Source: an uncultured virus (IMG/VR IMGVR_UViG_3300029319_000024)
Lineage: Duplodnaviria; Heunggongvirae; Uroviricota; Caudoviricetes
IMG/VR virus record: IMGVR_UViG_3300029319_000024
Coordinates: 1 to 64,000 of that record
Length of the DNA stretch: 64,000 nt
Reading direction: 5' to 3' (one strand)
A model generated the notes under the pieces. The model worked only from the letters and a program-made list of their open reading frames with translations. It made no database searches and was not told where the DNA came from. Numbering within the stretch: position 1 is the stretch's first letter; each line of letters begins with the position of its first letter. Shown here piece by piece: positions 1 through 64,000 of this stretch. The position numbers and the translations under genes were made by a program.

Positions 1-339
1 CAGTATCGTATAGACAATATAACAGTTGCTTTACGTATGGTTTCCATAGCTACAGGAGAAGTATTAATTGATGTTTTAGTAAATAAACAAATTTATAGTT
101 ATGGACAATCACAAGATGTTTTTAGGTTTATTGAAGCAGGTACGGAACTTGTAGAAATAGAAACAGGAGATGCAGAAAACGAGCCTACAACTTTAGCTTT
201 ACAAAAAGCTATAGAAGAAGCAGTTTTGCAAATAGTAAAAATAGGTTATAACAAAGGTTTTTGGGAGAAAAAAAATGAAGCAATTAAAATTGATGAGCCT
301 GATTGTGATGCTGACTGCATTGACAATATACGGGGCTGA
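1..339 (+). CDS. csgG: CsgG-family curli secretion channel, C-terminal part (truncated by window start)
   Basis: Frame open from base 1 (QYRIDNITVALRMVSIATGEVL...NEPTTLALQKAIEEAV); nearly identical to the C-terminus of the full copy at 60543-61412. Confidence 0.9.
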   Translation, partial: QYRIDNITVALRMVSIATGEVLIDVLVNKQIYSYGQSQDVFRFIEAGTELVEIETGDAENEPTTLALQKAIEEAVLQIVKIGYNKGFWEKKNEAIKIDEPDCDADCIDNIRG

Positions 340-991
340 TAACGAAATTTATGTTGACCAATCAGGTGCAACAGCAAATATAGATTTAGAACAACTTGGT
401 TCTGGAAATATTATTGGTGGTCTAAATTCTGTAGCAGGAACTCTTACTGCTTTAGATTTAGATGGTATTACTATGACATTAGATATAAACCAAATAGGTG
501 ATACAAACAAATTTCTTGGTGATATATTAGGAGATTCTGTAACAGGCTTTTTTGAATTTGATGGCGATAGTAATACTTTTACTATTCAAGGCGACCCAAC
601 AAATACTTATGGTATTGATAGTTCAAACTATAATGTTGATGTTACAGGTAGTTCTAATACATTTACTTTAGACCATGGCACAAGTGCATTAGCTGCTACA
701 TTAGATTTAGATTGGATTATACAGGGTGAAAGTAATACATTTGACTTTGATATTAATTATGATGGTGGCACTTCTTATGTTGATGTTGATGGTGATAGCA
801 ACACAATAAACTTTACAGGTTCTGGTTATGCTGGTGGTTATTTTTATTTAGACCAAACAGGCAACAGCAGAACATTTAATATTACACAAGCAAGTACCCA
901 AGATAATGACTGGCTTAAAATTCTATCTATTGGCAATAGTGGTACTGTGTGCGTTATTCAAAACGACCAAGGTACAAGCACAAGCTGCTGA
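275..991 (+). CDS. Secreted curlin-like (CsgA/CsgB-type) beta-repeat protein
   Basis: Signal peptide, then repeats such as DQSG..ANIDLEQLGSGN, INQIGDTN, IQGESNTF, LDQTGNSRTFNITQ; directly follows csgG. Confidence 0.75.
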   Translation: MKQLKLMSLIVMLTALTIYGADNEIYVDQSGATANIDLEQLGSGNIIGGLNSVAGTLTALDLDGITMTLDINQIGDTNKFLGDILGDSVTGFFEFDGDSNTFTIQGDPTNTYGIDSSNYNVDVTGSSNTFTLDHGTSALAATLDLDWIIQGESNTFDFDINYDGGTSYVDVDGDSNTINFTGSGYAGGYFYLDQTGNSRTFNITQASTQDNDWLKILSIGNSGTVCVIQNDQGTSTSC

Positions 992-2021
992 TATTGGAGA
1001 TATATCTGAACTAAATGGTTCAGCACAAATTGTAAGAGATAAACCTTACGAAGCTAATTTAAAGTTTGCTATACAAAGCAACGATGAAGCTATAACTAAA
1101 AATGGTCGTATGGCTATTACTTTTTTAGATGATTCAACTGTAAAGCTAACTGAACATTCACAGCTTTTAATAGATGAATATATCTATGACCCTGACCCAA
1201 GTAAAGCAAAGATGGCTCTTACCTTTGGACTTGGTACAGCAAGGTTTATTACTGGCAATTTAAACCGCATAGATAAGCAAAACATATCTTTAAAAACACC
1301 TACAGCTAATATAGCTATTCGTGGAACTGATTTTACGGCTACAGTTGATGAACTAGGGCGTAGTCTTATAATATTGCTGCCAGATGCTTTAGGGCTTTCT
1401 AGTGGCGAAATAGAGGTAGTTACAGCAACTGGTAGTGTTTTATTAAATAAACCATATGAAGCTACTACTGTAAATGTATTTGAAAGTTCGCCTACTAAAC
1501 CTGTAATATTAGATTTAACATTAGATATTATTGATAATATGTTAATTGTTACGCCACCTAAAGAAGAGGATATTGCACAAGAAGAAACGGCAACAACTAA
1601 AACAGTTAATTTATTAGACTTTAATGATTTAGATGTAGATTATTTAGCTGAGGATTTGCTAGAAGATAATAGTTTAGAGTTTACAGAATTAGATATAAAT
1701 TATTTAGATGTAAACTTTCTTGAAGATTTATTAAATGTTTTAGATGCTTTAGCAATAGAAAAAGAAGAAGATCAATTAGCTTTAGCTACAGGTGTAAACA
1801 TTTCTGGTACTTTAATTGGTCAAGACTCAAACACTCAAATAACTACAATAGTAGCAGGACAAGTTATAAGTTTACGTAGAAAAATTAGTGAATCCGTACA
1901 AGTAGATTTAAACTCAGGGAACGGCTATACAGTGATCTTAATCCAAGATGGAGTATCTAATATAGTAAAAATAAATGGCGGAGGAGATTCTGTTATAACC
2001 ATTAATCAAAGTAGCGGATGA
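906..2021 (+). CDS. FecR-domain periplasmic protein with acidic linker
   Basis: Signal peptide; FecR-type motifs (TKNGRMAITFLDDSTVKLTEHS, LKTPTANIAIRGTDF). Confidence 0.85.
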   Translation: MTGLKFYLLAIVVLCALFKTTKVQAQAADIGDISELNGSAQIVRDKPYEANLKFAIQSNDEAITKNGRMAITFLDDSTVKLTEHSQLLIDEYIYDPDPSKAKMALTFGLGTARFITGNLNRIDKQNISLKTPTANIAIRGTDFTATVDELGRSLIILLPDALGLSSGEIEVVTATGSVLLNKPYEATTVNVFESSPTKPVILDLTLDIIDNMLIVTPPKEEDIAQEETATTKTVNLLDFNDLDVDYLAEDLLEDNSLEFTELDINYLDVNFLEDLLNVLDALAIEKEEDQLALATGVNISGTLIGQDSNTQITTIVAGQVISLRRKISESVQVDLNSGNGYTVILIQDGVSNIVKINGGGDSVITINQSSG

Positions 2022-3781
2022 AGAAACTATTATTGCCTATACTTATAATACTAGCACTACCTCTAGTATTCCAAAGCACGCCTACAGAAATATTAAAACT
2101 TAAAGTGTATGACACTTTTATAAAAATACCAGAAGAATCAGGCAATTTTGTCATACTTAATATTACTGAAGAAGATGTAGAACGAGAAGGTGGTTATCCA
2201 TTACCAAGACAAAGATTAGCTGAAATACAAATAGATTTACTTAATAAAGGTGCAGTAGGTATTGGTTGGGTTATATCTTTTCCACAAGCTGACAGAATGG
2301 GTGGTGATGAAGTATTTGCTGCAGCATTAGAATATGCACCGTCTGTAATAGCTATGTTTGAAGACGGCAAAGGTAATTATCCTGCCTCACCTGGAACTGT
2401 TGTGCTTGGCGAAGATAATGGTGGTATAATAAGTTTGGGAGTGAAGGCGAACCATCCTCTCTTGTCAAATAAAACACTTCAAGGGTTAGCCATTGCTCCC
2501 ACAGATGTAGATCAACTTGTAAGAAGAATACCTCTTTTAGTAAAAACACCTAATAATGAATGGATACCTAGTTTTGGAACACAGATATATAAGGCTTTGT
2601 TTAATGTAAAAACATACATTATAAAAACTAATGATAATGGCATATCAGAAATATCAATTAGAGGAATACCACCTGTAAAAACAGATAGCTTGGGCAGAAA
2701 GTGGATAAGTTGGATCAATACACCACAAACGACATTACAAGAAATGGATGTTGCAGGTAAGTTTGTTTTTATAGGCGTTACTGCAAATGGTGTTATGCCA
2801 CAAATAGCAACACCAGTTGGTTTATTAGAGCCACATAAGATTCAAGCTGCACTTGCAGAGTCTATATTGGTGCAAGATAGTCCATATATTCCTGATTGGT
2901 CTTTAGCTGCTGAATTGGTAATGCTTGTCAGTTTTGTAACATTAGTTTGGTTTGCTTTACATTTACTTGGAATTACTTGGGGTATTACTATTGCTACATT
3001 TTTAATGTTTATAACTGGTGGTTTAGGGTATTACTTTATAAGCAAAGGGTTATTAGTAGATGTATCTTGGACGTTAATATCAGAGTTTATTACAGGATCT
3101 GTAGCATTTTATTTAAGATTTAGACAGCAATATAAACTACGTCAACAAATTAAAAAACAGTTTGAACACTACCTTGATCCACGCCAAGTTAAAAAGTTAC
3201 AAGATAATCCAGATTCTTTAGTTTTAGGTGGTGAGCGTAGGTATTGCACCTTTCTTTTTACTGACGTAAGAGGCTTTACTGCTATGTCTGAAAAATTAGA
3301 ACCAGAAGAAGTTACAGAAATAATGAATAAAGCACTTACTATACAAGCAGATGCAGTAAAAGAGTATGACGGTATGGTTGATAAATACATAGGCGATGCA
3401 ATGATGGCCATATTTAATGCACCTATAGATTTACCAGATCATGAAACTGCTGCTGTATTATGTGCAAAAGAGATACAAGATCAAATAAAACAAGCCAATC
3501 TTGGTGTAGAGATAGGTATAGGAGTTAATAGTGGATATGCTGTTGTAGGCAATATGGGAAGTGAAACTAGGTTTGATTATACTGCTATAGGTGATGCAGT
3601 AAACCTTGCTGCTAGGCTTGAAAGTTCTACTAAGGAAGTTGGAGAAGATATTGTTATAGGTTATGATACTATTCATGTAAAAAACTTTAGTGATCAAATT
3701 ATATTGAGAGAGCTAAAAAGCATATATGTTAAAGGTAAAGAAAAACCAATAAATATTTATACAATAGTAGCAGATGGTTAA
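2018..3781 (+). CDS. CHASE2-domain class III adenylate cyclase
   Basis: N-terminal TM, CHASE2-like region (GGYPLPRQRLA, DVDQLVRRIPL, GKFVFIG), 3 TMs, cyclase motifs FTDVRGFT, VDKYIGDAMMAIF, DYTAIGDAVNLAARLES. Confidence 0.95.
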   Translation: MKKLLLPILIILALPLVFQSTPTEILKLKVYDTFIKIPEESGNFVILNITEEDVEREGGYPLPRQRLAEIQIDLLNKGAVGIGWVISFPQADRMGGDEVFAAALEYAPSVIAMFEDGKGNYPASPGTVVLGEDNGGIISLGVKANHPLLSNKTLQGLAIAPTDVDQLVRRIPLLVKTPNNEWIPSFGTQIYKALFNVKTYIIKTNDNGISEISIRGIPPVKTDSLGRKWISWINTPQTTLQEMDVAGKFVFIGVTANGVMPQIATPVGLLEPHKIQAALAESILVQDSPYIPDWSLAAELVMLVSFVTLVWFALHLLGITWGITIATFLMFITGGLGYYFISKGLLVDVSWTLISEFITGSVAFYLRFRQQYKLRQQIKKQFEHYLDPRQVKKLQDNPDSLVLGGERRYCTFLFTDVRGFTAMSEKLEPEEVTEIMNKALTIQADAVKEYDGMVDKYIGDAMMAIFNAPIDLPDHETAAVLCAKEIQDQIKQANLGVEIGIGVNSGYAVVGNMGSETRFDYTAIGDAVNLAARLESSTKEVGEDIVIGYDTIHVKNFSDQIILRELKSIYVKGKEKPINIYTIVADG

Positions 3782-3989: not shown

Positions 3990-4465
3990 AAGGATTATTA
4001 AAAAATATAGTTGGAGCTGTAGCTCCAACATTAGGTTCTGCTATGGGAGGCCCTTTAGGTGGAATGGCTATGGGTAAAATAGCTGAAGTGTTAGGCGTAT
4101 CTAACGATCAAAAATCCATACAACAAGCTATGCAAAATGCAACACCAGAGCAAATGTTAGAACTTAAAAAAGCTGAACAAGAGTTTGAAGTGCAAATGAA
4201 AGAACTTGATGTAGATGTATTTAAGTTAGAAGTAGCAGATAAACAAAATGCTAGAGGTATGTTTAGCAAAGACTGGACTGCAAGAATTATAGGTTTATTT
4301 ACCATAGGTGGTTTCTTAGGCTACATATTTTTAGTAACCCTTCAACCACCAGAACAAAACAGCGAAGCATTAATTAATTTAGTGCTTGGTTATCTTGGAG
4401 GATTAGCAAGTGCGATTATTTCGTTCTATTTTGGAGCATCTCACACCAACGATAAAGGAGAGTAA
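3986..4465 (+). CDS. Putative holin (3TM/GTA-holin-like)
   Basis: VAPTLGSAMGGPLGG N-terminus, two C-terminal TMs ending SFYFGAS; adjacent to lysozyme. Confidence 0.65.
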   Translation: MKGLLKNIVGAVAPTLGSAMGGPLGGMAMGKIAEVLGVSNDQKSIQQAMQNATPEQMLELKKAEQEFEVQMKELDVDVFKLEVADKQNARGMFSKDWTARIIGLFTIGGFLGYIFLVTLQPPEQNSEALINLVLGYLGGLASAIISFYFGASHTNDKGE

Positions 4466-4466
4466 T

Positions 4467-4916
4467 ATGAAGATATCACAAGAGGGTTTATCCCTAATTA
4501 AAAAGTTTGAGGGTTGTGAGCTTGAAGCTTACAAATGTGCAGCAGGAGTTTGGACAATAGGCTATGGATCTACCAAAGGTGTAAAAGAGGGTGATACCAT
4601 TACCCAAGAAGAAGCCGATGAATTGTTATTACACGAAATGGAAGAATACGAAGGTTATATAAATGATTTAGTTGAAACTGATTTAAAACAAAATGAATTT
4701 GACGCTATGGTTTCATGGGTATTTAATCTTGGGCCAGCTAATTTAAAAAGTTCAACTTTATTAAAAGTATTAAATACCTCACACCCAGATTGGAATGATG
4801 TACCAGCACAAATAAAAAGATGGAACAAAGCTGGTGGAAAGGTTTTACAAGGTTTGGTAAGAAGAAGAGAGGCTGAGGCTTTATTATTTGAAGGTAAAGA
4901 ATGGCATGAGGTCTAA
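4467..4916 (+). CDS. Endolysin, GH24 phage lysozyme
   Basis: LIKKFEGCELEAYKCAAGVWTIGYG and GLVRRREAEA; likely start ATG 4467 after AGGAG. Confidence 0.95.
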   Translation: MKISQEGLSLIKKFEGCELEAYKCAAGVWTIGYGSTKGVKEGDTITQEEADELLLHEMEEYEGYINDLVETDLKQNEFDAMVSWVFNLGPANLKSSTLLKVLNTSHPDWNDVPAQIKRWNKAGGKVLQGLVRRREAEALLFEGKEWHEV

Positions 4917-4918
4917 AA

Positions 4919-6805
4919 ATGCCTTTAAGTAAATTACAATTTACACCAGGTATCAATAAAGAGATGACTGATCTTATGAATGAAGGTGGTTGGTCAGATG
5001 GTAATTTAGTTAGGTTTAGAAAAGGATTACCAGAAAAAATAGGTGGCTGGGAAAAAGAAACTACTAATTCTTATTTAGGAACAGGCAGAGCACTTTTAGG
5101 TTGGGTTGCTTTAGATTCAACTAAATATTTAGGTCTTGGAACTACATTCAAATATTACATAAAACAAGGACTTAGCTTTGATGATGTTACTCCAATAAGA
5201 TCAACCACAAGTGCAGGTGATGTAACCTTTGCTAAAGTAGAGGATGGTGACGCAACTATTACTGTTACAGATACGGCTCATGGTGCTGTGCAAAACGATT
5301 TTGTAACATTTAGTGGTGCATCTAGTTTGGGTGGTAACATTACTGCTGCCGTATTAAATCAAGAATATCAAATAGCAACCGTAGTAAATGCAAATAGTTA
5401 TACCATAGAAGCTAAAGATACATCTGGTACAACTGTTTTAGCTAACTCATCTGATAGTGGCAACGGAGGAAGTTCAGTTGTAGGAACATATCAAATCAGT
5501 GTAGGACTAGATGTTTATGTAGCATCAACTGGTTGGGGATCAGGCACATGGGGTGCTGGAACATGGGGGTCAAGCACAGCACTAACAGAAACTGGACAAT
5601 TAAGATTGTGGTCACATGATGCTTTTGGAGAAGATTTAATTATTAATCCAAGAGCAGGTAGTATTTATTATTGGGATGAAACTAATGGAACAAGCACTAG
5701 AGCAGTAGAGTTAAGCAGTTTAAGTGGTGCAAATCTTACACCAACTAAAGGTCTACAAGTTATTGTAAGTGATATTGATAGACACGTTATAGTTTTAGGT
5801 GCTGATCCTATTAGTGGTAGTTCAAGAACAGGAACTATAGATCCCATGCTCATAGCTTTTTCAGATCAAGAGAGTGCAACTAATTGGGAGCCAACTGCTA
5901 CCAACACAGCAGGATCGCTAAGACTATCATCTGGATCACAAATAGTAGGTGGTTTAAGATCAAGACAAGAAATACTTATTTGGACTGATACATCTTTATA
6001 TAGTATGCAGTTTGTAGGTGCACCTTTTACTTTTGGTGTAAATCTTATAAATGAAAACGTAGGACTTATATCTCCTAATGCAGCTATAAACGCACCAGAT
6101 AGCGTGTATTGGATGGCAAGAGATGGATTTTATGCTTATTCAGGATCAGTAAAAAGATTGGTATGTAGTGTGCTAAATTACGTGTTAGATGATTTTAATT
6201 CATCACAATCATTTAAAACTATAGCTTTTACAAATAAAGAGTTTAACGAAGTTGGTTGGTTTTATTGTTCATCTTCTTCAACTGAAATAGATAGATATGT
6301 AACTTATAATTATTTAGAAGGTGCTTGGAGTATAGGTAATTTATCCAGAACAGCTTGGTTAGATGAGGGTGTATTTGAAAAACCAAGAGCAACAGGTAAA
6401 GACAATAGCACAGGATATTTATATATTCATGAAAATTCCGATGATGCTGATGGCTTGCCTATGGACAATGTTTATATAGAATCAGGAGATATAGATATAG
6501 ATGACGGAGATAATTTTGGTTTTGTTAGCAGAATTATTCCTGATGTAAAGTTTTTTGGCTCGTCTGCATCTGGTGGCCAAATAAACTTTGTTCTTAAAAC
6601 TCGTAACTTTCCGGGCGATACTTTAACCACTAACTCAACAAACGATGTTACTAGCTCTACCCAACAAAACTTTACACGTGCTAGAGGTAGACAGTTGGTT
6701 CTTAGAGTTCAGTCTGATGATGACGCAGCTATAGGAGTTAGAACAGGTTTTAAATGGAGACTAGGCTCTAGTAGAATAGATGTTAAAAACGATGGTAGAA
6801 GATAG
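4919..6805 (+). CDS. Tail nozzle / packaged-DNA stabilisation-like protein, copy A
   Basis: 628 aa, beta-rich, upstream of internal virion genes; paralog at 55937-57838. Confidence 0.6.
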   Translation: MPLSKLQFTPGINKEMTDLMNEGGWSDGNLVRFRKGLPEKIGGWEKETTNSYLGTGRALLGWVALDSTKYLGLGTTFKYYIKQGLSFDDVTPIRSTTSAGDVTFAKVEDGDATITVTDTAHGAVQNDFVTFSGASSLGGNITAAVLNQEYQIATVVNANSYTIEAKDTSGTTVLANSSDSGNGGSSVVGTYQISVGLDVYVASTGWGSGTWGAGTWGSSTALTETGQLRLWSHDAFGEDLIINPRAGSIYYWDETNGTSTRAVELSSLSGANLTPTKGLQVIVSDIDRHVIVLGADPISGSSRTGTIDPMLIAFSDQESATNWEPTATNTAGSLRLSSGSQIVGGLRSRQEILIWTDTSLYSMQFVGAPFTFGVNLINENVGLISPNAAINAPDSVYWMARDGFYAYSGSVKRLVCSVLNYVLDDFNSSQSFKTIAFTNKEFNEVGWFYCSSSSTEIDRYVTYNYLEGAWSIGNLSRTAWLDEGVFEKPRATGKDNSTGYLYIHENSDDADGLPMDNVYIESGDIDIDDGDNFGFVSRIIPDVKFFGSSASGGQINFVLKTRNFPGDTLTTNSTNDVTSSTQQNFTRARGRQLVLRVQSDDDAAIGVRTGFKWRLGSSRIDVKNDGRR

Positions 6806-23352: not shown

Positions 23353-23554
23353 TAAAGACTCTATGGAAGAAGCAGTCAATGATGTTGGCATTGGATTAGT
23401 ATTATCTTTTCCAATCAGCTATGGTTTGCTTAGGTTGTGTAGCTATCTTGAGGTTAGTCTTGTAGCTACATCTGTAATACAAGTATCAGTGTTTACTTTG
23501 GTAGCAGTTGTAAGAAAGTATATGGTAAGAGTTTATTATAAGGAGAGAGGATGA
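23342..23554 (+). CDS. Small two-TM membrane protein
   Basis: Two hydrophobic helices; coupled to neighbours. Confidence 0.55.
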   Translation: MKIDKDSMEEAVNDVGIGLVLSFPISYGLLRLCSYLEVSLVATSVIQVSVFTLVAVVRKYMVRVYYKERG

Positions 23555-24732
23555 AGATAGACATATACGCAGGAGATTGTCTTGATTCATTAAAACAGCT
23601 AGAGGATCAAAGCATAAATACTTGTATAACAAGTCCGCCATACTTTGCACTAAGAGATTATGGTGTTGAAGGACAGCTTGGTTTAGAAGAAACTCCTAAA
23701 GAATTTGTAGATAACTTGGTTAATGTTTTCAAAGAAGTAAAGCGTGTCCTTCGTGATGATGGCACAGTATGGTTGAACATAGGCGATAGTTACGGAGCTC
23801 AAAACGGCAAAGGGTTTAACACCAACGCAAATGTTGGATCAACAAATAGATCAACAGAGATGCAAAAAAAGTATGGCGACATATCAAGTCATAGCACAAT
23901 AAAAGAAAGAACAGGGTTGCCACCTAAAAGTTTACTCGGTATGCCTTGGCGTGTGGCCTTTGCTATGCAAGACGATGGTTGGATACTAAGACAAGATATT
24001 ATTTGGCAAAAACCAAACCCTATGCCTGAAAGTGTAAAAGATAGATGCACTAAAGCACATGAGTATATATTTTTATTTAGTAAAAGCCCTAAGTATTACT
24101 TTGATAATGAAGCAATTAAAGAAGAATCAGTGACAGTCAACTCCAAAGGAGAAAGAGGTAAGCCTAACAGTGCAAAGAATGTAGGTAAATCTGTTGAAGG
24201 CATAGATGGATTTGATGTAAGGGGTGGCTTTAAAAACATGGGTGCTTATGAAAAAAGAAACAAAAGATCAGTATGGACTGTTAATACTAAACCTTTTAAA
24301 GAGGCACACTTTGCTACCTTTCCCCCAGACTTAATAAAGCCATGCGTATTAGCTGGTTGTCCTGAAAAGATATGTGTTGAGTGTGGCAAACCCTATGAAC
24401 GAGTTATGCAAAAGCCAAAGCAATTAGAGGTAGAGAGAAACAAAAGAAGTGGTTTAGATGATAGAAAGGTTGGTGGAGTATTAGATAAATATAATAGAGA
24501 AAATCCACCAATAGATTTAGGCCCACAAAAAAAATGCGATTGCAAAACTGATGAAACAAAACCTGGCACAGTTTTAGATCCGTTTGCTGGTAGTGGCACA
24601 ACAGCAAAGGTATCCGATTCTCATGAAAGGGATACAGTTCTTTGTGAGCTTAGTGATGATTACATAAAGATAGCAGTTAGGAGATTGACAAATGTGTTTA
24701 CAAATATAAATATAATTAGGGAGAAACAATGA
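23551..24732 (+). CDS. N4-cytosine/N6-adenine DNA methyltransferase (beta class)
   Basis: TSPPY motif IV precedes VLDPFAGSGTT motif I; HFATFP. Confidence 0.93.
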   Translation: MKIDIYAGDCLDSLKQLEDQSINTCITSPPYFALRDYGVEGQLGLEETPKEFVDNLVNVFKEVKRVLRDDGTVWLNIGDSYGAQNGKGFNTNANVGSTNRSTEMQKKYGDISSHSTIKERTGLPPKSLLGMPWRVAFAMQDDGWILRQDIIWQKPNPMPESVKDRCTKAHEYIFLFSKSPKYYFDNEAIKEESVTVNSKGERGKPNSAKNVGKSVEGIDGFDVRGGFKNMGAYEKRNKRSVWTVNTKPFKEAHFATFPPDLIKPCVLAGCPEKICVECGKPYERVMQKPKQLEVERNKRSGLDDRKVGGVLDKYNRENPPIDLGPQKKCDCKTDETKPGTVLDPFAGSGTTAKVSDSHERDTVLCELSDDYIKIAVRRLTNVFTNINIIREKQ

Positions 24733-26222
24733 AAGTATTAAGTTTATTTGATGGTATGAGTTGTGGCCGTATCGCCCTTGATCAGCTTGGCATACCTGTA
24801 GAGAAGTATTACGCAAGTGAGATAGATAAGTATGCTATGCAAGTCAGTGCAGCAAACTATCCAGACATAGAACAAGTGGGCGATATATGTAATTTAGATC
24901 CTAAAGATTATAAAGATGTAGACCTCATGCTTGCAGGCAGTCCATGTCAGGGGTTTAGTTTTGCAGGTAAACAGTTGGCCTTTGACGATCCTAGATCAGC
25001 ATTGTTCTTTGAGTTCATACGCTTACTCAAAGCGATTAAACCAAAGTATTTCTTACTAGAGAATGTCAGAATGAAGAAAGAGTTTTTAGAGATCATAACC
25101 CAACAAGTATCAGATTGTTATGAAGCAGATGATGTTGCACCTGAGTTTAAAGACATACTTGATAATGTCATGATTAATCCTCATTTTATAAATAGCTCTT
25201 TACTATCAGCACAGTCAAGGCAAAGATACTATTGGACTAACATACCCGGAATCAAACAGCCAGAAGATAGAGGTATTGTACTTAGGGATATATTGGAAAC
25301 CGAAACAGATGAACGCCCTGTAAAAGATACTGAAAGAAATCAAAGGCACTACAAAAATGAAGATGAAAAGTCTTTGTGTATGACAGCGACTATGTATAAG
25401 GGTGCAGGCAATAATGGTATGACCTTAGTTCCACAGAAACCTATAAACAAAGAGCAGATGATAGAAACTATGACAACAAAAGAAGGTAAATCATTTTGTT
25501 TAACAGCACAATATGATGCAGCTAGACCTAACAGGAGTAGAGATAGAAAAGAAAAAACTATGATACCTGTTGATGATATGAATAATTTACCTGAAGGAAC
25601 AAGATATGTTTATGATGAGAATGATAAGTCCCATAAAATAGAAACAAAGCCCAAACAAGTAGGCGTTGCAGTAGACATCAACGGACATGACATACTCAAA
25701 CGAGTTTATAGTCCAGATGGTAAGTCGCCTACAGTCAACACTTGTCAAGGTGGTAATCGTGAGCCGAAGGTGGCCGTTCAGTCTTACAGAGAGGTGAGAA
25801 CAGATGAGGCTAAAGCAATGCGTAAGATGGTAAGGCAACAAACAGGTAAAGATCATACACCTTTCAGAGCAAAGAAATTAGAGCCTAGAAAGGATGGCAA
25901 GGTCGGAACAGTCACACCTAGTCTTAATAAAGATCATGAGATAAGTATTAAAAACTTACCTGATAAATCACAAACAATTAAGTCGCAGTATTACAAATCA
26001 TCAAGAGCAAACTTTGAAAGGCAAGGCACATTTCATGCTACAGGAGTGCAACAAGAAGACCTTACCTGGAGAAAGCTCACTCCCCTAGAATGTGAACGCT
26101 TGCAGACAGTCCCAGACAATTACACAGATCATGTGAGCAACACTCAAAGATATAAGATGCTTGGCAACGGCTGGACTGTAGAAGTTATAAAGCATATCTT
26201 TCAAAACATGGAGATAGAATGA
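24729..26222 (+). CDS. C5-cytosine DNA methyltransferase with long variable region
   Basis: LSLFDGMSCG, GSPCQGFS, LENV, QSRQRYYW, RKLTPLECERLQ, RYKMLGNGW. Confidence 0.95.
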   Translation: MKVLSLFDGMSCGRIALDQLGIPVEKYYASEIDKYAMQVSAANYPDIEQVGDICNLDPKDYKDVDLMLAGSPCQGFSFAGKQLAFDDPRSALFFEFIRLLKAIKPKYFLLENVRMKKEFLEIITQQVSDCYEADDVAPEFKDILDNVMINPHFINSSLLSAQSRQRYYWTNIPGIKQPEDRGIVLRDILETETDERPVKDTERNQRHYKNEDEKSLCMTATMYKGAGNNGMTLVPQKPINKEQMIETMTTKEGKSFCLTAQYDAARPNRSRDRKEKTMIPVDDMNNLPEGTRYVYDENDKSHKIETKPKQVGVAVDINGHDILKRVYSPDGKSPTVNTCQGGNREPKVAVQSYREVRTDEAKAMRKMVRQQTGKDHTPFRAKKLEPRKDGKVGTVTPSLNKDHEISIKNLPDKSQTIKSQYYKSSRANFERQGTFHATGVQQEDLTWRKLTPLECERLQTVPDNYTDHVSNTQRYKMLGNGWTVEVIKHIFQNMEIE

Positions 26223-55927: not shown

Positions 55928-55936
55928 GAAAAAATA

Positions 55937-57838
55937 ATGCCTTTACAAAAATTTCTTTTTAAACCAGGAATCAATAAAGAAGCTACCGCTTACGCTAATG
56001 AAGGAGGTTGGTTTGATAGTAATTTAGTTCGTTTCCGTAAAGGTCTCCCAGAAAAAATAGGCGGATGGGCTAAAGCTTCTTCAAACAGTTTTAAATCTTC
56101 AGGAAGGTCTTTACACGCTTGGGTTGATTTAGAAGGAACTAAATATTTAGGGTTAGGAACTACTTGGAAAAACTATATATTAGAAGGAAATTCTTATAAT
56201 GATATAACTCCTTTAAGAAGTACTACTAGTGCAGGCGATGTAACATTTTCTGCAACTAATGGAAGTTCTACTATAACAGTAACGGATTCTTCTCATGGTG
56301 CTGTTATAAATGATTTTGTAACATTTAGTGGTGCAGCTACTTTAGGTGGTTTAATAACTGCTGCTGTACTAAATCAAGAATATCAAATAGTTACAGTACC
56401 TAACGCTAATACTTATACTATAACGGCTAAAGATACTGATGGTGCTGAAGTAACCGCTAATTCAAGTGATAGTGGTAACGGTGGTGGGAGTGTCGTCGGT
56501 GCTTATCAAATAAACGTAGGTTTAGATGTTTACGTTCCCTCAACAGGGTGGGGCTCTGATTATTGGGGCTCAGGTACTTGGGGGAGTGTTGCGGCATTAG
56601 AAACAACAAATCAATTACGTTTATGGTCTCAAGATAATTTTGGTGAAGATTTACTTTTTAATGCTAGAGGAGCAGGAATTTATTATTGGGATACTAGTGC
56701 AAAAACATTAGGTACTGATAGAGGTGTTGCTTTATCTGCTATTTCTGGAGCTAATTTAGCACCTACTAAAGCTTTACAAGTTTTAGTCAGTGATGTAGAC
56801 AGACACGTAATTTGTTTAGGAGCAGACCCATTAAATGATGGAGAAACAGCTAGAACAGGTTCAATAGACCCTATGTTTATTGCATGGTCTGACCAAGAAG
56901 ATGCAGCAGAATGGGAACCTAAATCGACAAATACGGCAGGGTCTTTTAGACTTTCTGCAGGGTCTTCTATAGTTGGAGGAGTTAGAGCAAGACAAGAAAC
57001 ATTAATTTGGACAGATACTTCTTTATATTCTATGACTTTTGTAGGACAGCCTTTTACTTTTTCTTTAAACCTAGTTAACGAAGGAGTTGGATTAGTAGGA
57101 CCTAATGCTATGGTCAATACTCCTAAAGGTGTTTTTTGGATGGATAAAAAAGGTTTTTATAACTATTCAGGACAAATACAACAACTATTATGTACTGTAG
57201 ATGAATATGTTTTTACAGATTTAAACCAAACACAAAGTTATCAAATATTCGGTTTTGTTAATAAAGCTTTTAATGAAGTGGGGTGGTTTTATTGTTCAAA
57301 CGATACTACAGTTATAGATAGATATGTCGTATTTAATTATGAAGAACAAGTATGGTCAATAGGTAAATTATCTAGAACATCTTGGATAGACGAAGGTATT
57401 TTTAGTGACCCTAAAGCTACTTATTCTAGTTCTAATACAGGGTATTGTTACAACCACGAAACTGGACATGACGCAGACGAAACAGCTATGACGGATGTTT
57501 ATATAGAGTCTAGTGATTTTGACATAGACCCAGCAGGAGAAGATTTTCAACATATTAGTAGGATTATTCCTGATGTTAAGTTTAACGGAAACGGTAGTGT
57601 GGGAACTGGGGGACAACAAGTAGATATAGTATTAAAGAAAAGAGATTTTCCAGGAGAATCTTTAACTACCGTTGTTACTGGAGCTTGTTATTCTAATACT
57701 TCTAAAATAGATACTCGTCTTAGAGGTCGTCAAGCAGTTATCCGAGTTCAGTCTAATGATGATGATACTGCTAAATTAGGTATGGGTTTTAGATTAGGTG
57801 CAACTCGTTTGGATATTAAACCTGACGGTAAACGTTAA
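55937..57838 (+). CDS. Tail nozzle / stabilisation-like protein, copy B
   Basis: Full-length paralog of 4919-6805 (NLVRFRKGLPEKIGGW, ITAAVLNQEYQI). Confidence 0.6.
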   Translation: MPLQKFLFKPGINKEATAYANEGGWFDSNLVRFRKGLPEKIGGWAKASSNSFKSSGRSLHAWVDLEGTKYLGLGTTWKNYILEGNSYNDITPLRSTTSAGDVTFSATNGSSTITVTDSSHGAVINDFVTFSGAATLGGLITAAVLNQEYQIVTVPNANTYTITAKDTDGAEVTANSSDSGNGGGSVVGAYQINVGLDVYVPSTGWGSDYWGSGTWGSVAALETTNQLRLWSQDNFGEDLLFNARGAGIYYWDTSAKTLGTDRGVALSAISGANLAPTKALQVLVSDVDRHVICLGADPLNDGETARTGSIDPMFIAWSDQEDAAEWEPKSTNTAGSFRLSAGSSIVGGVRARQETLIWTDTSLYSMTFVGQPFTFSLNLVNEGVGLVGPNAMVNTPKGVFWMDKKGFYNYSGQIQQLLCTVDEYVFTDLNQTQSYQIFGFVNKAFNEVGWFYCSNDTTVIDRYVVFNYEEQVWSIGKLSRTSWIDEGIFSDPKATYSSSNTGYCYNHETGHDADETAMTDVYIESSDFDIDPAGEDFQHISRIIPDVKFNGNGSVGTGGQQVDIVLKKRDFPGESLTTVVTGACYSNTSKIDTRLRGRQAVIRVQSNDDDTAKLGMGFRLGATRLDIKPDGKR

Positions 57839-58164
57839 TGGGTAAGTTATTAGAAACTAAACTTCCCGTAGCGATAGGAGAAGTATCTTCTGAAACATTT
57901 AACCGTTTAGTAAGAGTATTAGAATTAAGTTTAAATACTAAAGATATTAATGCAACCTTAAATGTAAATGAAACAGAAAGAAATAAAAATAAATTCAACA
58001 AAGGAGATATTATTTGGAATCTTTCTACAAACCAACTGCAATTATGGACAGGTGATAAATGGGTAGATATATATTCAGGGACCGAAAAGGGAGTTCAGGG
58101 AACAACGGCACTGGGGAACGTAAGCGTTTCAACTGGTGGAGCAACAACAATAACAATAACGTAG
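57838..58164 (+). CDS. Tail-associated protein, copy B
   Basis: Paralog of 6805-7140. Confidence 0.55.
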   Translation: MGKLLETKLPVAIGEVSSETFNRLVRVLELSLNTKDINATLNVNETERNKNKFNKGDIIWNLSTNQLQLWTGDKWVDIYSGTEKGVQGTTALGNVSVSTGGATTITIT

Positions 58165-58175
58165 AGGATATTAAT

Positions 58176-58622
58176 ATGGATATGCAAAAATTACAAGAAG
58201 AATTAACTTTTGATGAAGGCTGTATAGATAAAATATACTTAGACCATTTAGGTTATCCAACTTTTGGTATAGGTCATTTAATATTAGAAACAGACCCTGA
58301 ACACGGACAAGAAGTAGATACTCCTGTTTCTGAAGAAAGAATAACTGAATGTTTTGAAAAAGACATACAAAACGTTATAAATGATTTAGATAGAAACATG
58401 ACATGGTGGAAAGATTTACCAGAAGATTTACAAAGAGTTATGGCGAATATGTGTTTTAATTTAGGTATAACAAGGTTATTAAAGTTTAAAAAGTTTTTGG
58501 CTGCGATGGAAGAACATAACTGGGATAAAGCTGCAGTTGAAATGTTAGATAGTCGTTGGGCTATACAAGTAGGTCCAAGAGCTATAAGATTAAAAGATAG
58601 AGTTTTAAAACAAGGAGAATAA
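58176..58622 (+). CDS. T4-type lysozyme
   Basis: DEGCIDKIYLDHLGYPTFGIGH, NMCFNLG, AAVEMLDSRWAIQVGPRA. Confidence 0.9.
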   Translation: MDMQKLQEELTFDEGCIDKIYLDHLGYPTFGIGHLILETDPEHGQEVDTPVSEERITECFEKDIQNVINDLDRNMTWWKDLPEDLQRVMANMCFNLGITRLLKFKKFLAAMEEHNWDKAAVEMLDSRWAIQVGPRAIRLKDRVLKQGE

Positions 58623-58623
58623 T

Positions 58624-58719
58624 ATGCCAAAAGTAGGAAAGAAAAAATTTTCATACACTAAAAAAGGAAAAGCAGCAGCTAAAGCCTATAAAAAGAAAAT
58701 GAAGAAAAAGAAAAAATAG
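58624..58719 (+). CDS. Tiny Lys-rich peptide (not in ORF track)
   Basis: MPKVGKKKFSYTKKGKAAAKAYKKKMKKKKK; AGGAG upstream. Confidence 0.55.
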   Translation: MPKVGKKKFSYTKKGKAAAKAYKKKMKKKKK

Positions 58720-58728
58720 GAGAATAAA

Positions 58729-58917
58729 ATGTCTGCAAAGAAAAAATCAAGTAGTAAGTATCATACGACTAAAGATGGCAGACGAGCTAAAAAAGGTTTA
58801 TGGTATAATATAAATAAAAAGCGTAAAGAAGGCAGAAAAATGCGTAAGAAAGGAGCCAAAGGAGCACCTACAGCAGCAGCTTTAAAACGTTCTAGAAAAA
58901 CAAGTAAAAAGAAGTAA
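58729..58917 (+). CDS. Small basic protein
   Basis: KKGLWYNINKKRK...KGAPTAAALK; AGGAG RBS. Confidence 0.65.
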   Translation: MSAKKKSSSKYHTTKDGRRAKKGLWYNINKKRKEGRKMRKKGAKGAPTAAALKRSRKTSKKK

Positions 58918-59183
58918 TGCCTAGAAAAAAGAAAAAGTCTATAAGACGTACTACAAAAGGAAAAGGAGCTAATTACCGACCTACTAAAAAAGGTGCAGGC
59001 ATGACCAAAAAAGGTGTTGCTGCGTATCGTAAGAAAAATCCTGGAAGTAAATTAAAAACAGCTGTCACTGGTAAAGTTAAAAAAGGAAGTAAAGCTGCAA
59101 AAAGAAGAAAGTCTTTTTGTGCTAGGTCTAAGGGTTGGAAGGGTGAAAGAGGTAAAGCAGCTCGTAGAAGGTGGAAGTGTTAA
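58917..59183 (+). CDS. Small highly basic protein, copy B
   Basis: Paralog of 46112-46414. Confidence 0.7.
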   Translation: MPRKKKKSIRRTTKGKGANYRPTKKGAGMTKKGVAAYRKKNPGSKLKTAVTGKVKKGSKAAKRRKSFCARSKGWKGERGKAARRRWKC

Positions 59184-59564
59184 ATGGCTAAAGCACCAGA
59201 TTCATTCGTATATAACGCAACACTAGAACGTATAGTTGATGGCGATACATTTGATTGCACTTTAGATTTAGGCTTTGATGTAAAGTTACATAAACAACGT
59301 GTTAGATTAGCAGGTATAGATACTCCTGAAAGTAGAACTAGAGATTTAGCAGAAAAGAAATTAGGACTTGCTGCTAAAGAAAGACTTAAAGAATTATGTA
59401 TTGGTAAAATACAAGTCAAATCTTTAGGCAAAGGTAAATATGGTAGAATACTTGGTATTCCGTATACAGAAGACGGCAGAGATATCTGTGATGTTTTAAT
59501 AAAAGAAGGTCATGCTGTTGAATATCATGGAGGGAAAAAGGTTAAAGTTTGGGGTGATTATTAA
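59184..59564 (+). CDS. Thermonuclease (SNase-like)
   Basis: IVDGDT, RVRLAGIDTPE, GKYGRILG. Confidence 0.9.
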   Translation: MAKAPDSFVYNATLERIVDGDTFDCTLDLGFDVKLHKQRVRLAGIDTPESRTRDLAEKKLGLAAKERLKELCIGKIQVKSLGKGKYGRILGIPYTEDGRDICDVLIKEGHAVEYHGGKKVKVWGDY

Positions 59565-59919
59565 TGGAATCAGCCGTTACTTTAATTCAAGAAGTTGGAT
59601 TTCCTATTGCAGCCGCACTTGGTCTTGGTTGGTTTATTNNNNNNNNNNGCTTATCATGCGTATTGTGGATGGCATGGAGCAAAAACTAGATGTAGTTGAT
59701 GAAAAAGTAGCTGGTCAAATACAAGCTATTGAAGAAAGATTAGGCACAAAACTTGACTCCCAACACGGAATACTAGTAGCATTAATTGATAGGGTACGTA
59801 GTTTAGATAACGAAATTATAAGACAAGATACTTTAATTAAGACTATTCTTGGCGTACCTAATTTAATAGATAGTAATAAAATCGCTAAGGCTGATAGAAA
59901 TGACCAAAGGATTGATTAA
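59564..59919 (+). CDS. Membrane-anchored coiled-coil protein (interrupted by an N gap)
   Basis: ATG 59564 gives MESAVTLIQEVGFPIAAALGLGWFI; the frame after the gap gives ...LIDRVRSLDNEIIRQD. Confidence 0.55.
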
Positions 59920-60109: not shown

Positions 60110-60598
60110 ATGAGTAAAAAAGAAGAATTAGAAAAAATATTCATTTATAGACTTGTTGTTGTTATAGGGTTAATTCTTTTTCTGGGGATATTAGGGATTA
60201 ATCTTAAAGCCGACACTATAACCCATAAATTTAAAAATCCCAGTTTTAATGGGATAGGTACTTCGTCCCATTATCTTACGATTGAAAACCAAGAATTTAA
60301 TCGTAAGATGAGTATAAAAGAAGAAATTAAAGCAATACAAGAACAAATTGAAAGAGATAAAGAAAATACTACATTAGCTAGATTTATTAGGAATCTTGAG
60401 TCACGTATCTATGCACAGTTATCAAGACAGTTGGTAGAAAATTTGTTCGGAGAAACTCCTAGCACTGAAGGAACTTTAACCTTAGAGGGCAACACTATAC
60501 AATATAGTATCAAAGACGGAGTTATAAGTTTAATTATTACCGATGCAGATGGAAATGTCACAGAGATACAGTTGCCTATTGGCGATTTTTCTTTCTAG
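60110..60598 (+). CDS. csgF: CsgF-family curli assembly component
   Basis: Signal peptide followed by DTITHKFKNPSFNG (CsgF N-terminal F.NP.F.G); immediately upstream of csgG. Confidence 0.85.
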   Translation: MSKKEELEKIFIYRLVVVIGLILFLGILGINLKADTITHKFKNPSFNGIGTSSHYLTIENQEFNRKMSIKEEIKAIQEQIERDKENTTLARFIRNLESRIYAQLSRQLVENLFGETPSTEGTLTLEGNTIQYSIKDGVISLIITDADGNVTEIQLPIGDFSF

Positions 60599-61412
60599 TT
60601 GTAGTTTAGCTCCTGTAGATACTAATTTACAACAAGGTAAAACTTTACCTAGTGTATTACAAATACAATCTGAAGAATTATTAAACGCACCACAACCTAA
60701 AGTACCTATCGTTGTAGCAGTATACCCTAATAGTTTTACTGACCAAACAGGACAACGTAAAAGCAATAGTGAGTTTGCTTTATTTAGTACAGCACTAACC
60801 CAAGCTCCTAGTCATTTATTAATTAGAAGTTTAAAACATACAGCTAATGGTAAATTTTTTAGAGTTGCCGAAAGAGTTGGATTAGATAACCTTACAAAAG
60901 AAAGACAACTAATTCGTTCTGCTAGAGAACAAAACGAAGCAACAGATGGACCTAAACCCATTATGCCGTTATTATTTGCAGGTGTTCTTATGGAAGGTGC
61001 CGTAATTGGGTATGACACAAATATTAAAAGCGGTGGTATTGGTGCAAGATATTTAGGTATTGGAATGAGTAAACAGTATCGTATAGACAATATAACAGTT
61101 GCTTTACGTATGGTTTCCATAGCTACAGGAGAAGTATTAATTGATGTTTTGGTGAATAAACAAATTTATAGTTATGGACAATCACAAGATGTTTTTAGGT
61201 TTATTGAAGCAGGTACAGAACTTGTAGAAATAGAAACAGGAGATGCAGAAAACGAGCCTACAACGTTAGCATTACAGAGAGCTATTGAGGCGTCTGTTTT
61301 GCAAATCGTCAAAATAGGGTATGATAAAGGTTTTTGGGAGGAAAAAAATGAAGCAATTAAAATTGATGAGCCTGATTGCGATGCTGAGTGTATTGACAAC
61401 ATACGCGGCTGA
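60543..61412 (+). CDS. csgG: CsgG-family outer-membrane curli secretion lipoprotein
   Basis: Lipobox LSSC; FTDQTGQRK, FSTALTQ, ERVGLDNLTKERQLIR, GGIGARYLGIG; start may be ATG 60555. Confidence 0.95.
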   Translation: MQMEMSQRYSCLLAIFLSSCSLAPVDTNLQQGKTLPSVLQIQSEELLNAPQPKVPIVVAVYPNSFTDQTGQRKSNSEFALFSTALTQAPSHLLIRSLKHTANGKFFRVAERVGLDNLTKERQLIRSAREQNEATDGPKPIMPLLFAGVLMEGAVIGYDTNIKSGGIGARYLGIGMSKQYRIDNITVALRMVSIATGEVLIDVLVNKQIYSYGQSQDVFRFIEAGTELVEIETGDAENEPTTLALQRAIEASVLQIVKIGYDKGFWEEKNEAIKIDEPDCDAECIDNIRG

Positions 61413-62064
61413 TAACGAAATACACGTAGACCAAAGCGGAGCTACAGCTAACATAGATTTAGAACAACTTGGTTCTGGTAACATAATCGGTGGTTTGCAA
61501 TCTACAGCAGGAAGTTTAACCGCTCTTGATTTAGACGGAACTTCGTTAACTCTTGATATTAACCAAATAGGTGATACAAACAAATTTCTTGGTGATATAT
61601 TAGGGGACTCTGTAACAGGCTTTTTTGAATTTGATGGTGATAGTAATACTTTTACTATTCAAGGCGACCCCACTAATACTTATGGTATTGATAATTCAAA
61701 TTATAATGTTGATGTTACAGGCAGTTCTAACACATTCACATTAGACCATGGAACAAGTGCATTAGCTGCTACATTAGATTTAGATTGGATTATACAGGGT
61801 GAAAGTAATACATTTGACTTTGATATAAATTACGACGGTGGTACTTCTTATGTTGATGTTGATGGTGATAGTAATACTTTAAACTTTACAGGCTCTGGTT
61901 ATGCTGGTGGCTATTTTTATTTAGACCAAACAGGTAATTCTAGAACATTTAATATTACACAATCAAGTACATTAGATAATGACTGGCTCAAAATTATATC
62001 TATTGGTAATAGTGGTACTGTTTGCGTCATTCAAAACGACGGCGGAACAAGCACAAGCTGCTGA
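61348..62064 (+). CDS. Curlin-like secreted protein, copy B
   Basis: Close homolog of 275-991; GGAGG RBS before ATG 61348. Confidence 0.75.
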   Translation: MKQLKLMSLIAMLSVLTTYAADNEIHVDQSGATANIDLEQLGSGNIIGGLQSTAGSLTALDLDGTSLTLDINQIGDTNKFLGDILGDSVTGFFEFDGDSNTFTIQGDPTNTYGIDNSNYNVDVTGSSNTFTLDHGTSALAATLDLDWIIQGESNTFDFDINYDGGTSYVDVDGDSNTLNFTGSGYAGGYFYLDQTGNSRTFNITQSSTLDNDWLKIISIGNSGTVCVIQNDGGTSTSC

Positions 62065-63094
62065 TATTGGAGATATATCTGAACTAAACGGCTCTGCTCA
62101 AATTGTAAGAGATAAACCTTACGACGCTAATTTAAAATTTGCTATACAAAGTAATGACGAAGCTATAACTAAAAATGGTCGTATGGCTATTACTTTTCTT
62201 GACGAGTCTGTAGTAAAACTTACCGAACATTCACAACTTCTCATAGATGAATATATTTATGACCCTGACCCCAGTAAAGCCAAAATGGCACTTACCTTTG
62301 GTCTTGGTACAGCAAGGTTTATTACTGGCAATTTAAATCGTATAGATAAACAAAATATACAATTAAAAACTCCTACAGCAAATATAGCTATTCGTGGTAC
62401 TGATTTTACTGCTACGGTTGATGAACTAGGTCGTTCACTTATTATATTATTGCCTGACCCTTTTGGTCTTTCTAGTGGCGAAATAGAGGTAGTTACAGCA
62501 ACTGGTAGTGTTTTATTAAATAAACCTTATCAAGCTACAACTGTTTCTGTGTGGGAAAGCACTCCCACTAAACCTGTAATATTAGATTTAACTTTAGATA
62601 TTATAGATAATATGTTAATTGTTACGCCACCAAAAGAAGACGCTGTTGTACAAGAAGAAGCAACTACAGCTAAAACAGTTAATTTATTAGATTTTAATGA
62701 TTTAGATATAGATTATTTAGCAGAAGATTTTTTAGAAGATAATAGTTTAGAGTTTACAGAATTAGATATTAATTACCTTGATGTTAATTTTTTAGAAGAT
62801 TTATTAAATGTATTAGACGCTCTTGCTATAGAAAAAGAAGAAGACCAATTAGCGTTAGCTACAGGGGTGAATGTTTCTGGTACTTTAATTGGTCAAGACT
62901 CAGATACACAAATAACTACAATAGTAACAGGACAGGTTATAAGTTTACGTAGGAAAGTAAGTGAGTCTGTGCAATTAGATTTAAATTCAGGAAACGGTTA
63001 TACAGTAATTTTGATACAAGACGGAGTATCTAATATAATAAAAATCAATGGTGGAGGAGACTCTGTTATAACGATTAACCAAAGTAGCGGATGA
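61979..63094 (+). CDS. FecR-domain protein, copy B
   Basis: Close homolog of 906-2021. Confidence 0.85.
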   Translation: MTGSKLYLLVIVVLFASFKTTAEQAQAADIGDISELNGSAQIVRDKPYDANLKFAIQSNDEAITKNGRMAITFLDESVVKLTEHSQLLIDEYIYDPDPSKAKMALTFGLGTARFITGNLNRIDKQNIQLKTPTANIAIRGTDFTATVDELGRSLIILLPDPFGLSSGEIEVVTATGSVLLNKPYQATTVSVWESTPTKPVILDLTLDIIDNMLIVTPPKEDAVVQEEATTAKTVNLLDFNDLDIDYLAEDFLEDNSLEFTELDINYLDVNFLEDLLNVLDALAIEKEEDQLALATGVNVSGTLIGQDSDTQITTIVTGQVISLRRKVSESVQLDLNSGNGYTVILIQDGVSNIIKINGGGDSVITINQSSG

Positions 63095-64000
63095 AGAAAC
63101 TTATATTTATATTATTACCTTTATTAGCATTACCTTTATTGTTTCAAAGCACGCCTACAGAAATATTAAAATTAAAAACTTTTGATGCTTTAATAAAAGA
63201 ACAAGAGCCTAGCGGTAATTTTGTAATACTTAATATAACTGAAGAAGATGTAGAGCGGGAAGGTGGTTATCCATTACCTAGGAAAAGATTAGCAGATATA
63301 CAATTAGAAATATTAGGTAAAGGTGCACTTGGGGTTGGTTGGGTTATTAGTTTTCCACAAGCAGATAGACTTATGGGAGATGAAGATTTTGCTAGGTCTT
63401 TAGGATACGCTCCGAGTGTATTAGCTACTTTTGAAGACGGTAATCAAAACTATCCTAAAACAACAGGCACCGTTATTAAAGGTCCTGATGTTAAGGGATT
63501 AGCGTCTACAGGAGTTAAACAAAATTTTTATTTATATGATGATATAGCACAAGGAGTTGCTATAGCCCCCACAGAAGTAGACCAACTTGTTAGGCGTATT
63601 CCTCTATTATTAAAAACGCCTGACGGTTGGGCTCCTTCTTTTGGAGTTCATGTGTTAAAAAATTTAACAGGAGCTCGTACTTATATAATTACTACTAATG
63701 ATAACGGAGTGCAAGAAATAGCTGTTAGGGGAATACCACCAGTTAAAACAGATAGTCTTGGGCGTAAGTGGATTAGTTGGGTAAAAACAGAAGAAACTAA
63801 TTTACAAGAAATGGATGTAAACGGTAAGTTTGTTTTCGTAGGAGTTACAGCAAATGGTGTAATGCCGCAAATTGCAACACCTGTTGGTTTATTAGAACCA
63901 CATAAAATACAAGCAGCGTTATCTGAAAGCGTATTAATACAAAATAGTCCTTATATTCCTGATTACGCTTTAGCTTTAGAACTTTTAATATTTATAGCGT
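63091..64000 (+). CDS. CHASE2 adenylate cyclase, copy B (truncated by window end)
   Basis: ATG 63091 MKKLIFILLP...FQSTPTEILKLK; homolog of 2018-3781. Confidence 0.9.
   Translation, partial: MKKLIFILLPLLALPLLFQSTPTEILKLKTFDALIKEQEPSGNFVILNITEEDVEREGGYPLPRKRLADIQLEILGKGALGVGWVISFPQADRLMGDEDFARSLGYAPSVLATFEDGNQNYPKTTGTVIKGPDVKGLASTGVKQNFYLYDDIAQGVAIAPTEVDQLVRRIPLLLKTPDGWAPSFGVHVLKNLTGARTYIITTNDNGVQEIAVRGIPPVKTDSLGRKWISWVKTEETNLQEMDVNGKFVFVGVTANGVMPQIATPVGLLEPHKIQAALSESVLIQNSPYIPDYALALELLIFIA

Follow-up and report, generated by a model that had tools for sequence, protein, structure and literature searches.

The curli cassette and its two copies

The window, i.e., the whole stretch of 64,000 nucleotides analysed here, is part of a 73,876-base phage contig and carries a curli (T8SS) cassette in the confirmed order csgF, csgG, curlin, FecR, cyclase, parts of which occur twice (Table 1). 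CsgG was identified by profile (PF03783, 161.5 bits against a curated cut-off of 20.8), by comparison of the complete copy with PDB CsgG (E 4e-49) and by a fold Z of 21 (21.2 with rmsd 4.2 over 223 residues aligned to 6L7A; 20-21.6 over the core fold of E. coli CsgG in 4UV3, 6L7A and 7BRM). The lipobox cysteine, C20, is nearly invariant among homologues. The phage is of the marine HTVC023P type: its terminase is 59-62% and its capsid protein 65-70% identical to those of HTVC023P, HTVC027P and 023Pt_psg01. Judged from relatives only, Pelagibacter may be the host; the recorded host of a close relative, DSL-LC04, is Gammaproteobacteria.

Table 1. Features of the curli cassette in the window
Feature	Positions	Strand	Remarks
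csgG copy 1, 3' part	1..339	+	5' end cut by contig start
Putative ribosome-binding site of the curlin gene, GGAG	264..267	+	Within csgG Trp-Glu codons; function suggested by sequence
65-nt dual-coding overlap	275..339	+	csgG tail and curlin signal peptide, frame +1; signal cleavage after residue 20 (by eye)
Conserved tail motif	298..339	+	P-x-C-D-x-x-C-hydrophobic-x-x-hydrophobic-R-G-stop
Cys codons of the tail motif	304-306, 316-318	+	
Curlin-repeat protein copy 1	275..991	+	PF07012, E 3.5e-4 (at cut-off)
FecR-domain protein copy 1	906..2021	+	PF04773
CHASE2 / adenylate-guanylate cyclase copy 1	2018..3781	+	PF05226, PF00211
csgF	60110..60598	+	PF10614; CsgG lipoprotein signal at 3' end, frame +1
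csgG copy 2	60543..61412	+	Complete, 289 aa from first ATG; PF03783, E 2e-47
Second copy of the 65-nt overlap	61348..61412	+	
Curlin-repeat protein copy 2	61348..62064	+	PF07012, just below cut-off
FecR-domain protein copy 2	61979..63094	+	87.5% identity to copy 1
CHASE2 cyclase copy 2	63091..64000	+	Continues beyond window end

Modules of this kind are known. A T8SS/curli module with the same csgF-csgG-curlin-FecR-adenylate cyclase order and no csgE has been published for HTVC023P-type podophages and for pelagimyophages (Wittmers et al. 2022, PMC9599517). CsgE was reported there to be absent from all of these phage cassettes and from similar alphaproteobacterial modules, and the curli and csgG parts of the main text mention no gene overlap, tail or Cys pair. 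The same cassette occurs in HTVC008M and Melnitz (PMC9004378, the main text of which mentions neither cysteine nor disulfide), with CsgG proteins 48% and 40% identical to that of the window. Unlike the window, both lack a Cys-containing tail; csgG and the curlin gene overlap by 17 nt in HTVC008M and not at all in Melnitz.

The earlier note had called the two versions of the csgG/curlin overlap copies. The two cassette stretches are related (csgG copy 1 and copy 2 are 93% identical), but they are probably natural alleles of two genomes joined by assembly rather than paralogues. Contig positions 1-3660 recur at 61074-64727 with 80% identity, a period of 61,073 bases, which is about one HTVC023P-type genome length, and a second, more diverged duplication (68%) links 4915-6553 with 55933-57583. 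Of the related loci, L001 and L002 are closest to copy 2 (97%). L006 matches both 57349-59919 and 1-2775 at 98% and so joins the genes upstream of copy 2 to the copy-1 cassette. Genes for two phage lysozymes and one SNase-like nuclease adjoin the cassettes (4410-4916, 58059-58622, 59184-59564), and N6/N4 and C5 DNA methyltransferase genes lie side by side at 23551-26222. The equal-length ORFs of 1291 aa proved to be unrelated.

The csgG/curlin overlap and selection in its two frames

The last 65 nt of csgG, which encode a short C-terminal tail, double as the curlin signal peptide, whose ATG at 275 lies downstream of the GGAG. The two versions of this overlap differ at 5 of 65 sites (306, 315, 318, 327 and 333), all of them csgG position 3 and curlin position 2. 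In the CsgG frame four of the differences are silent and one exchanges D and E; in the curlin frame they read V/A, T/S, A/V, I/T and G/A. The earlier note had described exactly these five differences and their amino-acid effects, which a recount reproduced, and had taken the pattern as a sign of selection in the CsgG frame. For the pair itself the probability of 5/5 at csgG position 3 is 0.004 under a uniform distribution and about 2e-6 using the share in relatives' non-overlapped signal peptides, but the pair exaggerates what holds for the family. Over 63 pairs of homologues, differences in the last 16 csgG codons fell on CsgG positions 1/2/3 in the proportion 72/25/53, and with a third-position share of only 53/150 the 5/5 of the window pair is not typical.

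The comparison of frame-specific rates over homologues that the note had proposed was carried out with 126 haplotypes from 173 loci, arranged as 63 disjoint pairs, with the silent sites of mature curlin as the neutral rate; the tailed set excluded 13 Cx4C loci, the locus L159 and nine others in which the downstream sequence was too short or bases were ambiguous. Changes affecting only the CsgG tail occurred at 0.34 of the neutral rate (bootstrap 0.27-0.43) and changes affecting only the signal peptide at 0.23 (bootstrap 0.15-0.32), both intervals lying below 0.45. Changes altering both frames ran at 0.13 of neutral, mature curlin itself at 0.11, and the CsgG-only value for the 41 closest pairs was 0.48. 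These rates indicate that the overlap is truly dual-coding, with both frames selected. Selection on the CsgG tail is thus real, as the note had supposed, but it does not act on CsgG alone: the signal peptide is at least as constrained as the tail.

Low rates might also be attributed to a constraint with no role at the protein level, either through the requirements of translation initiation at the 5' end of the curlin gene or through the recent spread of one recombining block. The block is indeed exchanged often, and free (non-overlapped) signals change silently at half the rate of mature curlin (0.068 vs 0.139). A codon-matched test gave 54 observed silent signal-frame changes against 219 expected, and discounting for the slower silent rate of free signals left 54 against 107 (P 1e-8). 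The constraint is also site-specific in the CsgG frame: where the signal peptide permits change, almost none was seen at P, both C, I, R, G or the stop, while D/N and K/E tail sites beside these invariant ones were free to vary (18, 14, 10 and 11 differences). After discount, Pro, Arg, Gly, Asp285 and the stop each gave P<0.005, the two Cys together 0 changes against 6.8 expected (P 1e-3), and each Cys alone P 0.03. The first Cys was constant in 126/126 haplotypes though the signal residues sharing its bases vary (I/S/L/V; V/A), and in this genome of 36% G+C, codons with a final C or G persist precisely where Pro, Arg and Gly are specified.

Short csgG alleles, in which the signal peptide is free of the overlap, served as a control (49 haplotypes from 64 of 66 loci, 24 pairs, five pairs with signals less than 60% identical having been dropped). 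Differences by curlin codon position were 10/1/16 in free signals and 20/51/30 in overlapped ones, so that second-position changes made up 1/27 and 51/101, respectively (P 4e-6); all of these P values are guides only, because recombination weakens the independence of the pairs. The nucleotide-level explanation is already largely refuted by these observations and is regarded as very improbable. The tail-only rate of 0.34, the near-fixed P, C, I, R, G and stop, and the pairing of the two Cys (below) together imply that the tail is under purifying selection at the amino-acid level and is not neutral read-through, which upholds that part of the note's view.

Another idea, that ribosomes shift frame in a programmed way on the A-run preceding the curlin ATG and so yield a CsgG-curlin fusion, was rejected; other clades have no such run, and upstream of the ATG the curlin frame is often not open.

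The long junctions of the cassette share their geometry: csgF/csgG, csgG/curlin and curlin/FecR all overlap in frame +1. Up to 56 nt at the 3' end of csgF also encode the lipoprotein signal of CsgG (60543-60598), and the final 86 nt of the curlin gene also encode the signal-like N-terminus of the FecR-domain protein (906-991 and 61979-62064). The curlin/FecR overlap is a second case of the csgG/curlin pattern, with 6 of 9 differences between copies on curlin third positions.

An optional tail exchanged between phages

Four scans of viral contigs, three of which contributed the best 80 of 186, 231 and 323 matches, gave 261 loci; one ends before the stop, and with the two window copies 262 csgG ends were available. 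Among the matches listed, exactly two Cys were found in the last 20 residues of 196 ends and none in the remaining 66, so that every one of the 262 had either two or none. Spacing among the 196 tailed ends listed was Cx3C in 182, Cx4C in 13 and Cx8C in one; a further protein, P0121, has Cx2C. Distinct junctions among the matches listed numbered 186, 135 tailed and 51 short, with overlaps of mostly 59-68 nt in the tailed class and of 8-20 nt, or none, in the short class. The tailed share by query was 60/80, 80/80, 52/80 and, for a tail-less query, 2/20, and the overall frequency is biased toward tailed alleles because three queries were tailed. The earlier note had held that homologues commonly stopping before the tail would speak against it, and the 66 ends and 51 junctions that do so in these matches lend that objection partial substance.

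The tail is kept on CsgG cores only ~60-65% identical to that of the window and occurs in only two (P0147 and P0121) of 150 distant representatives. Exceptions to pairing were few: of 120 proteins, one tail has three Cys (P0012, at all three positions) and one short allele has a single Cys, which sits at the Trp position; in one locus (L085) the second Cys is lost and a new one lies at -2, although only one contig shows this and an error is possible. A single-query scan of bacterial and archaeal genomes returned 85 pattern matches, 0 confirmed, and an atlas search with residues 262-289 reached a top score of 0.82, below the 0.9 lead level. The idea that the motif is portable to other genes was discarded, since in 79/80 loci listed it follows csgG and the other is a chance match. 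L159, a candidate for a tail freed from the overlap, was also discarded: an unrelated 114-aa gene just after its csgG stop carries the overlapped signal peptide, and its curlin gene sits farther downstream with another signal.

The tail is optional and has switched at least 13-22 times among near-identical CsgG/curlin alleles. On trees of 165 distinct loci and two outgroups, tail state changed 13 times on the CsgG-core tree and 22 times on the mature-curlin tree, of which well-supported branches alone force 5 and 10, and identity between tailed and short alleles reaches 97.7% in the CsgG core and 99.6% in curlin. No column in CsgG or curlin clearly co-varies with the tail. The signal peptides of short alleles are diverse and unlike the tailed one; none in the 66 short loci looks like a nonsense derivative of it (best 9/14 residues, others at most 7). 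Tail and signal are accordingly exchanged together, as a single block.

These alleles bear directly on the note's suggestion that the tail replaces CsgE, in which nine tails would gate the periplasmic mouth of the pore or pass curlin to it. The lack of CsgE in phage cassettes (PMC9599517) is in its favour, as is the position of the tail: the last conserved Trp before it, W265, corresponds in the alignment to W252 of the E. coli precursor (W237 of the mature protein), a residue reported to line the crevice that receives the N-terminus of CsgA outside the periplasmic chamber (PMC6957492), so that the tail begins at the substrate crevice on the periplasmic side. A CsgE-like cap would always accompany its pore, however, and the tail is missing from 66 of the 262 ends listed, on CsgG and curlin proteins nearly identical to tailed ones. 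HTVC008M and Melnitz are likewise tail-less, with no csgE annotated in the stretches examined. The 13-residue acidic motif also differs in size and charge from CsgE, which is described as a folded protein with a basic key surface (PMC6050966). A built-in CsgE substitute is therefore improbable, and that part of the note was not sustained.

The untranslated same frame of the short signals contains at least one Cys in 63/66 loci and two in 39, so that two Cys alone are not evidence of selection; Cys codons arise readily in unrelated signals, which makes an origin by overprinting plausible. The tail is missing from HTVC008M and Melnitz and from the deepest branches of the curlin tree, which favours gain, and gain rather than loss is judged reasonably likely; the counts of change alone cannot separate the two. 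In terminal same-strand overlaps of phages generally, a tolerant partner shares bases with the 3' end of its neighbour. The tolerant partner here is the signal peptide, but the upstream reading differs from the general case in being an optional appendage with an invariant motif of its own, exchanged as an allele.

Structure of the tail and its possible roles

Among 73 distinct tails the first Cys lies at -11 in all 73, Pro at -13 in 70, Arg at -2 in 71 and Gly at -1 in 72, and Asp follows the first Cys in 67; the linker from Trp to the first Cys spans 11-22 residues. The RG terminus was found in 190/194 tails. In six loci the tail also ends in IRG, the stop being TAG and lying at a different offset within a longer signal. 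AlphaFold2 predicted a 7-residue helix following Cys-Asp in each of two models (residues 281-287 and 293-299, pLDDT 63 and 74), preceded by a linker of low confidence in both. Asp as N-cap and Gly as C-cap follow the usual helix rules. Alignments to E. coli CsgG end at about model residue 272 or 277, and in neither model was the tail helix, behind its low-confidence linker, superposed on the E. coli C-terminal segment. The note's term 'extension' holds relative to the short phage alleles; E. coli CsgG, in contrast, runs 25 residues beyond the same Trp, and the window protein 24.

The note had further named a periplasmic disulfide as a possibility. The two tail cysteines occur as a pair, which fits a disulfide. 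The mature CsgG body has no other Cys in 180/180 tailed alleles among the matches listed, and curlin has its Cys pair with either allele, so the pairing is probably internal. A CsgG-curlin intermolecular disulfide is disfavoured, as the curlin pair is present in 240/240 complete curlins whichever csgG allele accompanies them. A literature search for DsbA in Pelagibacter found nothing. Prediction of a complex between two CsgG cores and the 33-residue tail of P0106 scored 0.12 against a mark of 0.32, with controls not folded, and speaks neither for nor against binding.

The reading that we favour, with modest confidence, is that the tail is an optional, tethered micro-module whose disulfide-capped helix docks and tunes the pore but is dispensable. 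A flexible acidic linker would lead from the last conserved Trp to Pro and Cys-Asp-x-x-Cys; the Cys pair would probably close as an intramolecular disulfide in the periplasm and cap a 7-residue amphipathic helix with an invariable Arg-Gly-COOH end. The pore would carry nine such tails on its periplasmic rim, next to the crevice in which E. coli CsgG binds the substrate N-terminus. The helix most likely docks on a protein surface, either the ring itself or a host periplasmic protein, and docking may tune assembly, stability or access of a pore whose cassette persists without it. The helix is a prediction, and its disulfide, location and docking, like the direction of origin, we infer. A single origin is probable, in which the csgG stop was lost and translation continued through the region for the curlin signal peptide, a region in which codons for Cys, Asp and Asn arise readily; the tail would now spread between phages by recombination together with that signal. 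A bolder version, in which a disulfide micro-domain born de novo by overprinting serves as built-in gate or adaptor for CsgE-less pores and is maintained among abundant ocean phages as a balanced, recombining and possibly host-matched two-allele polymorphism, is doubtful.

The tail could instead have been selected merely to be harmless, the disulfide and helix caps keeping a read-through product folded, protease-resistant and non-aggregating with no partner at all. Its optional nature, the lack of co-adapted residues and a composition that follows from the +1 signal frame would all suit this. Yet a change of Ile ATA to ATT, silent in the signal, would restore an early stop and end the burden, and 0/66 short loci resemble such a derivative; moreover, the stop stays exactly in place and the Arg-Gly end is conserved, even though a second stop codon usually follows directly. 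A purely harmless tail is accordingly unlikely.

A metal site, where the Cys pair together with neighbouring Asp/Glu would bind Cu, Zn or Fe and so tie the pore to metal status, is distinctly unlikely. The Cys are paired, the last 15 residues carry a net charge of 0 to -7, and the cassette includes a FecR-domain gene; CxxxC also binds metal in Sco-type proteins. The Sco-type copper site, however, combines fixed Cx3C spacing with a His on a thioredoxin fold, whereas spacing here varies (Cx3C, Cx4C, Cx8C, Cx2C), neither a conserved His nor a thioredoxin fold was found, and the Arg-Gly end would be left unexplained.

The tail is real, if a small detail, and within this known system it seems not to have been published; the open-literature listings and main-text passages searched describe neither tail nor overlap. 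The scope is small, one tail in one known system, but phage curli cassettes are common throughout the ocean, and the natural tailed/short allele pair places a selected 16-residue tail on near-identical pores as a ready comparison, which could help to reveal the function of the pore and its gating in the absence of CsgE. The overlap is also a countable case of a selected peptide motif within the signal sequence of another gene, for which the short alleles provide a natural control. As CsgG is a nanopore scaffold, a native periplasmic appendage is of some engineering interest.

Other cysteines were seen in the same survey. The curlin of copy 1 has a Cys pair at its own C-terminus, and among the matches listed 239 of 240 complete curlins have two terminal Cys and one has three; the curlins of HTVC008M and Melnitz, unlike these, lack the pair. 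In seven loci with the short allele, the mature CsgG body contains two additional Cys; these loci may belong to the L241-L260 group, to judge from the N-terminal insert of P0071-like proteins. Two Cys in the last 20 residues occur in 14/150 distant representatives, and five long CsgG homologues of 410-443 aa (P0151, P0153, P0166, P0188 and P0209) carry a different terminal pair, C-x4-C, possibly a convergent terminal disulfide motif.
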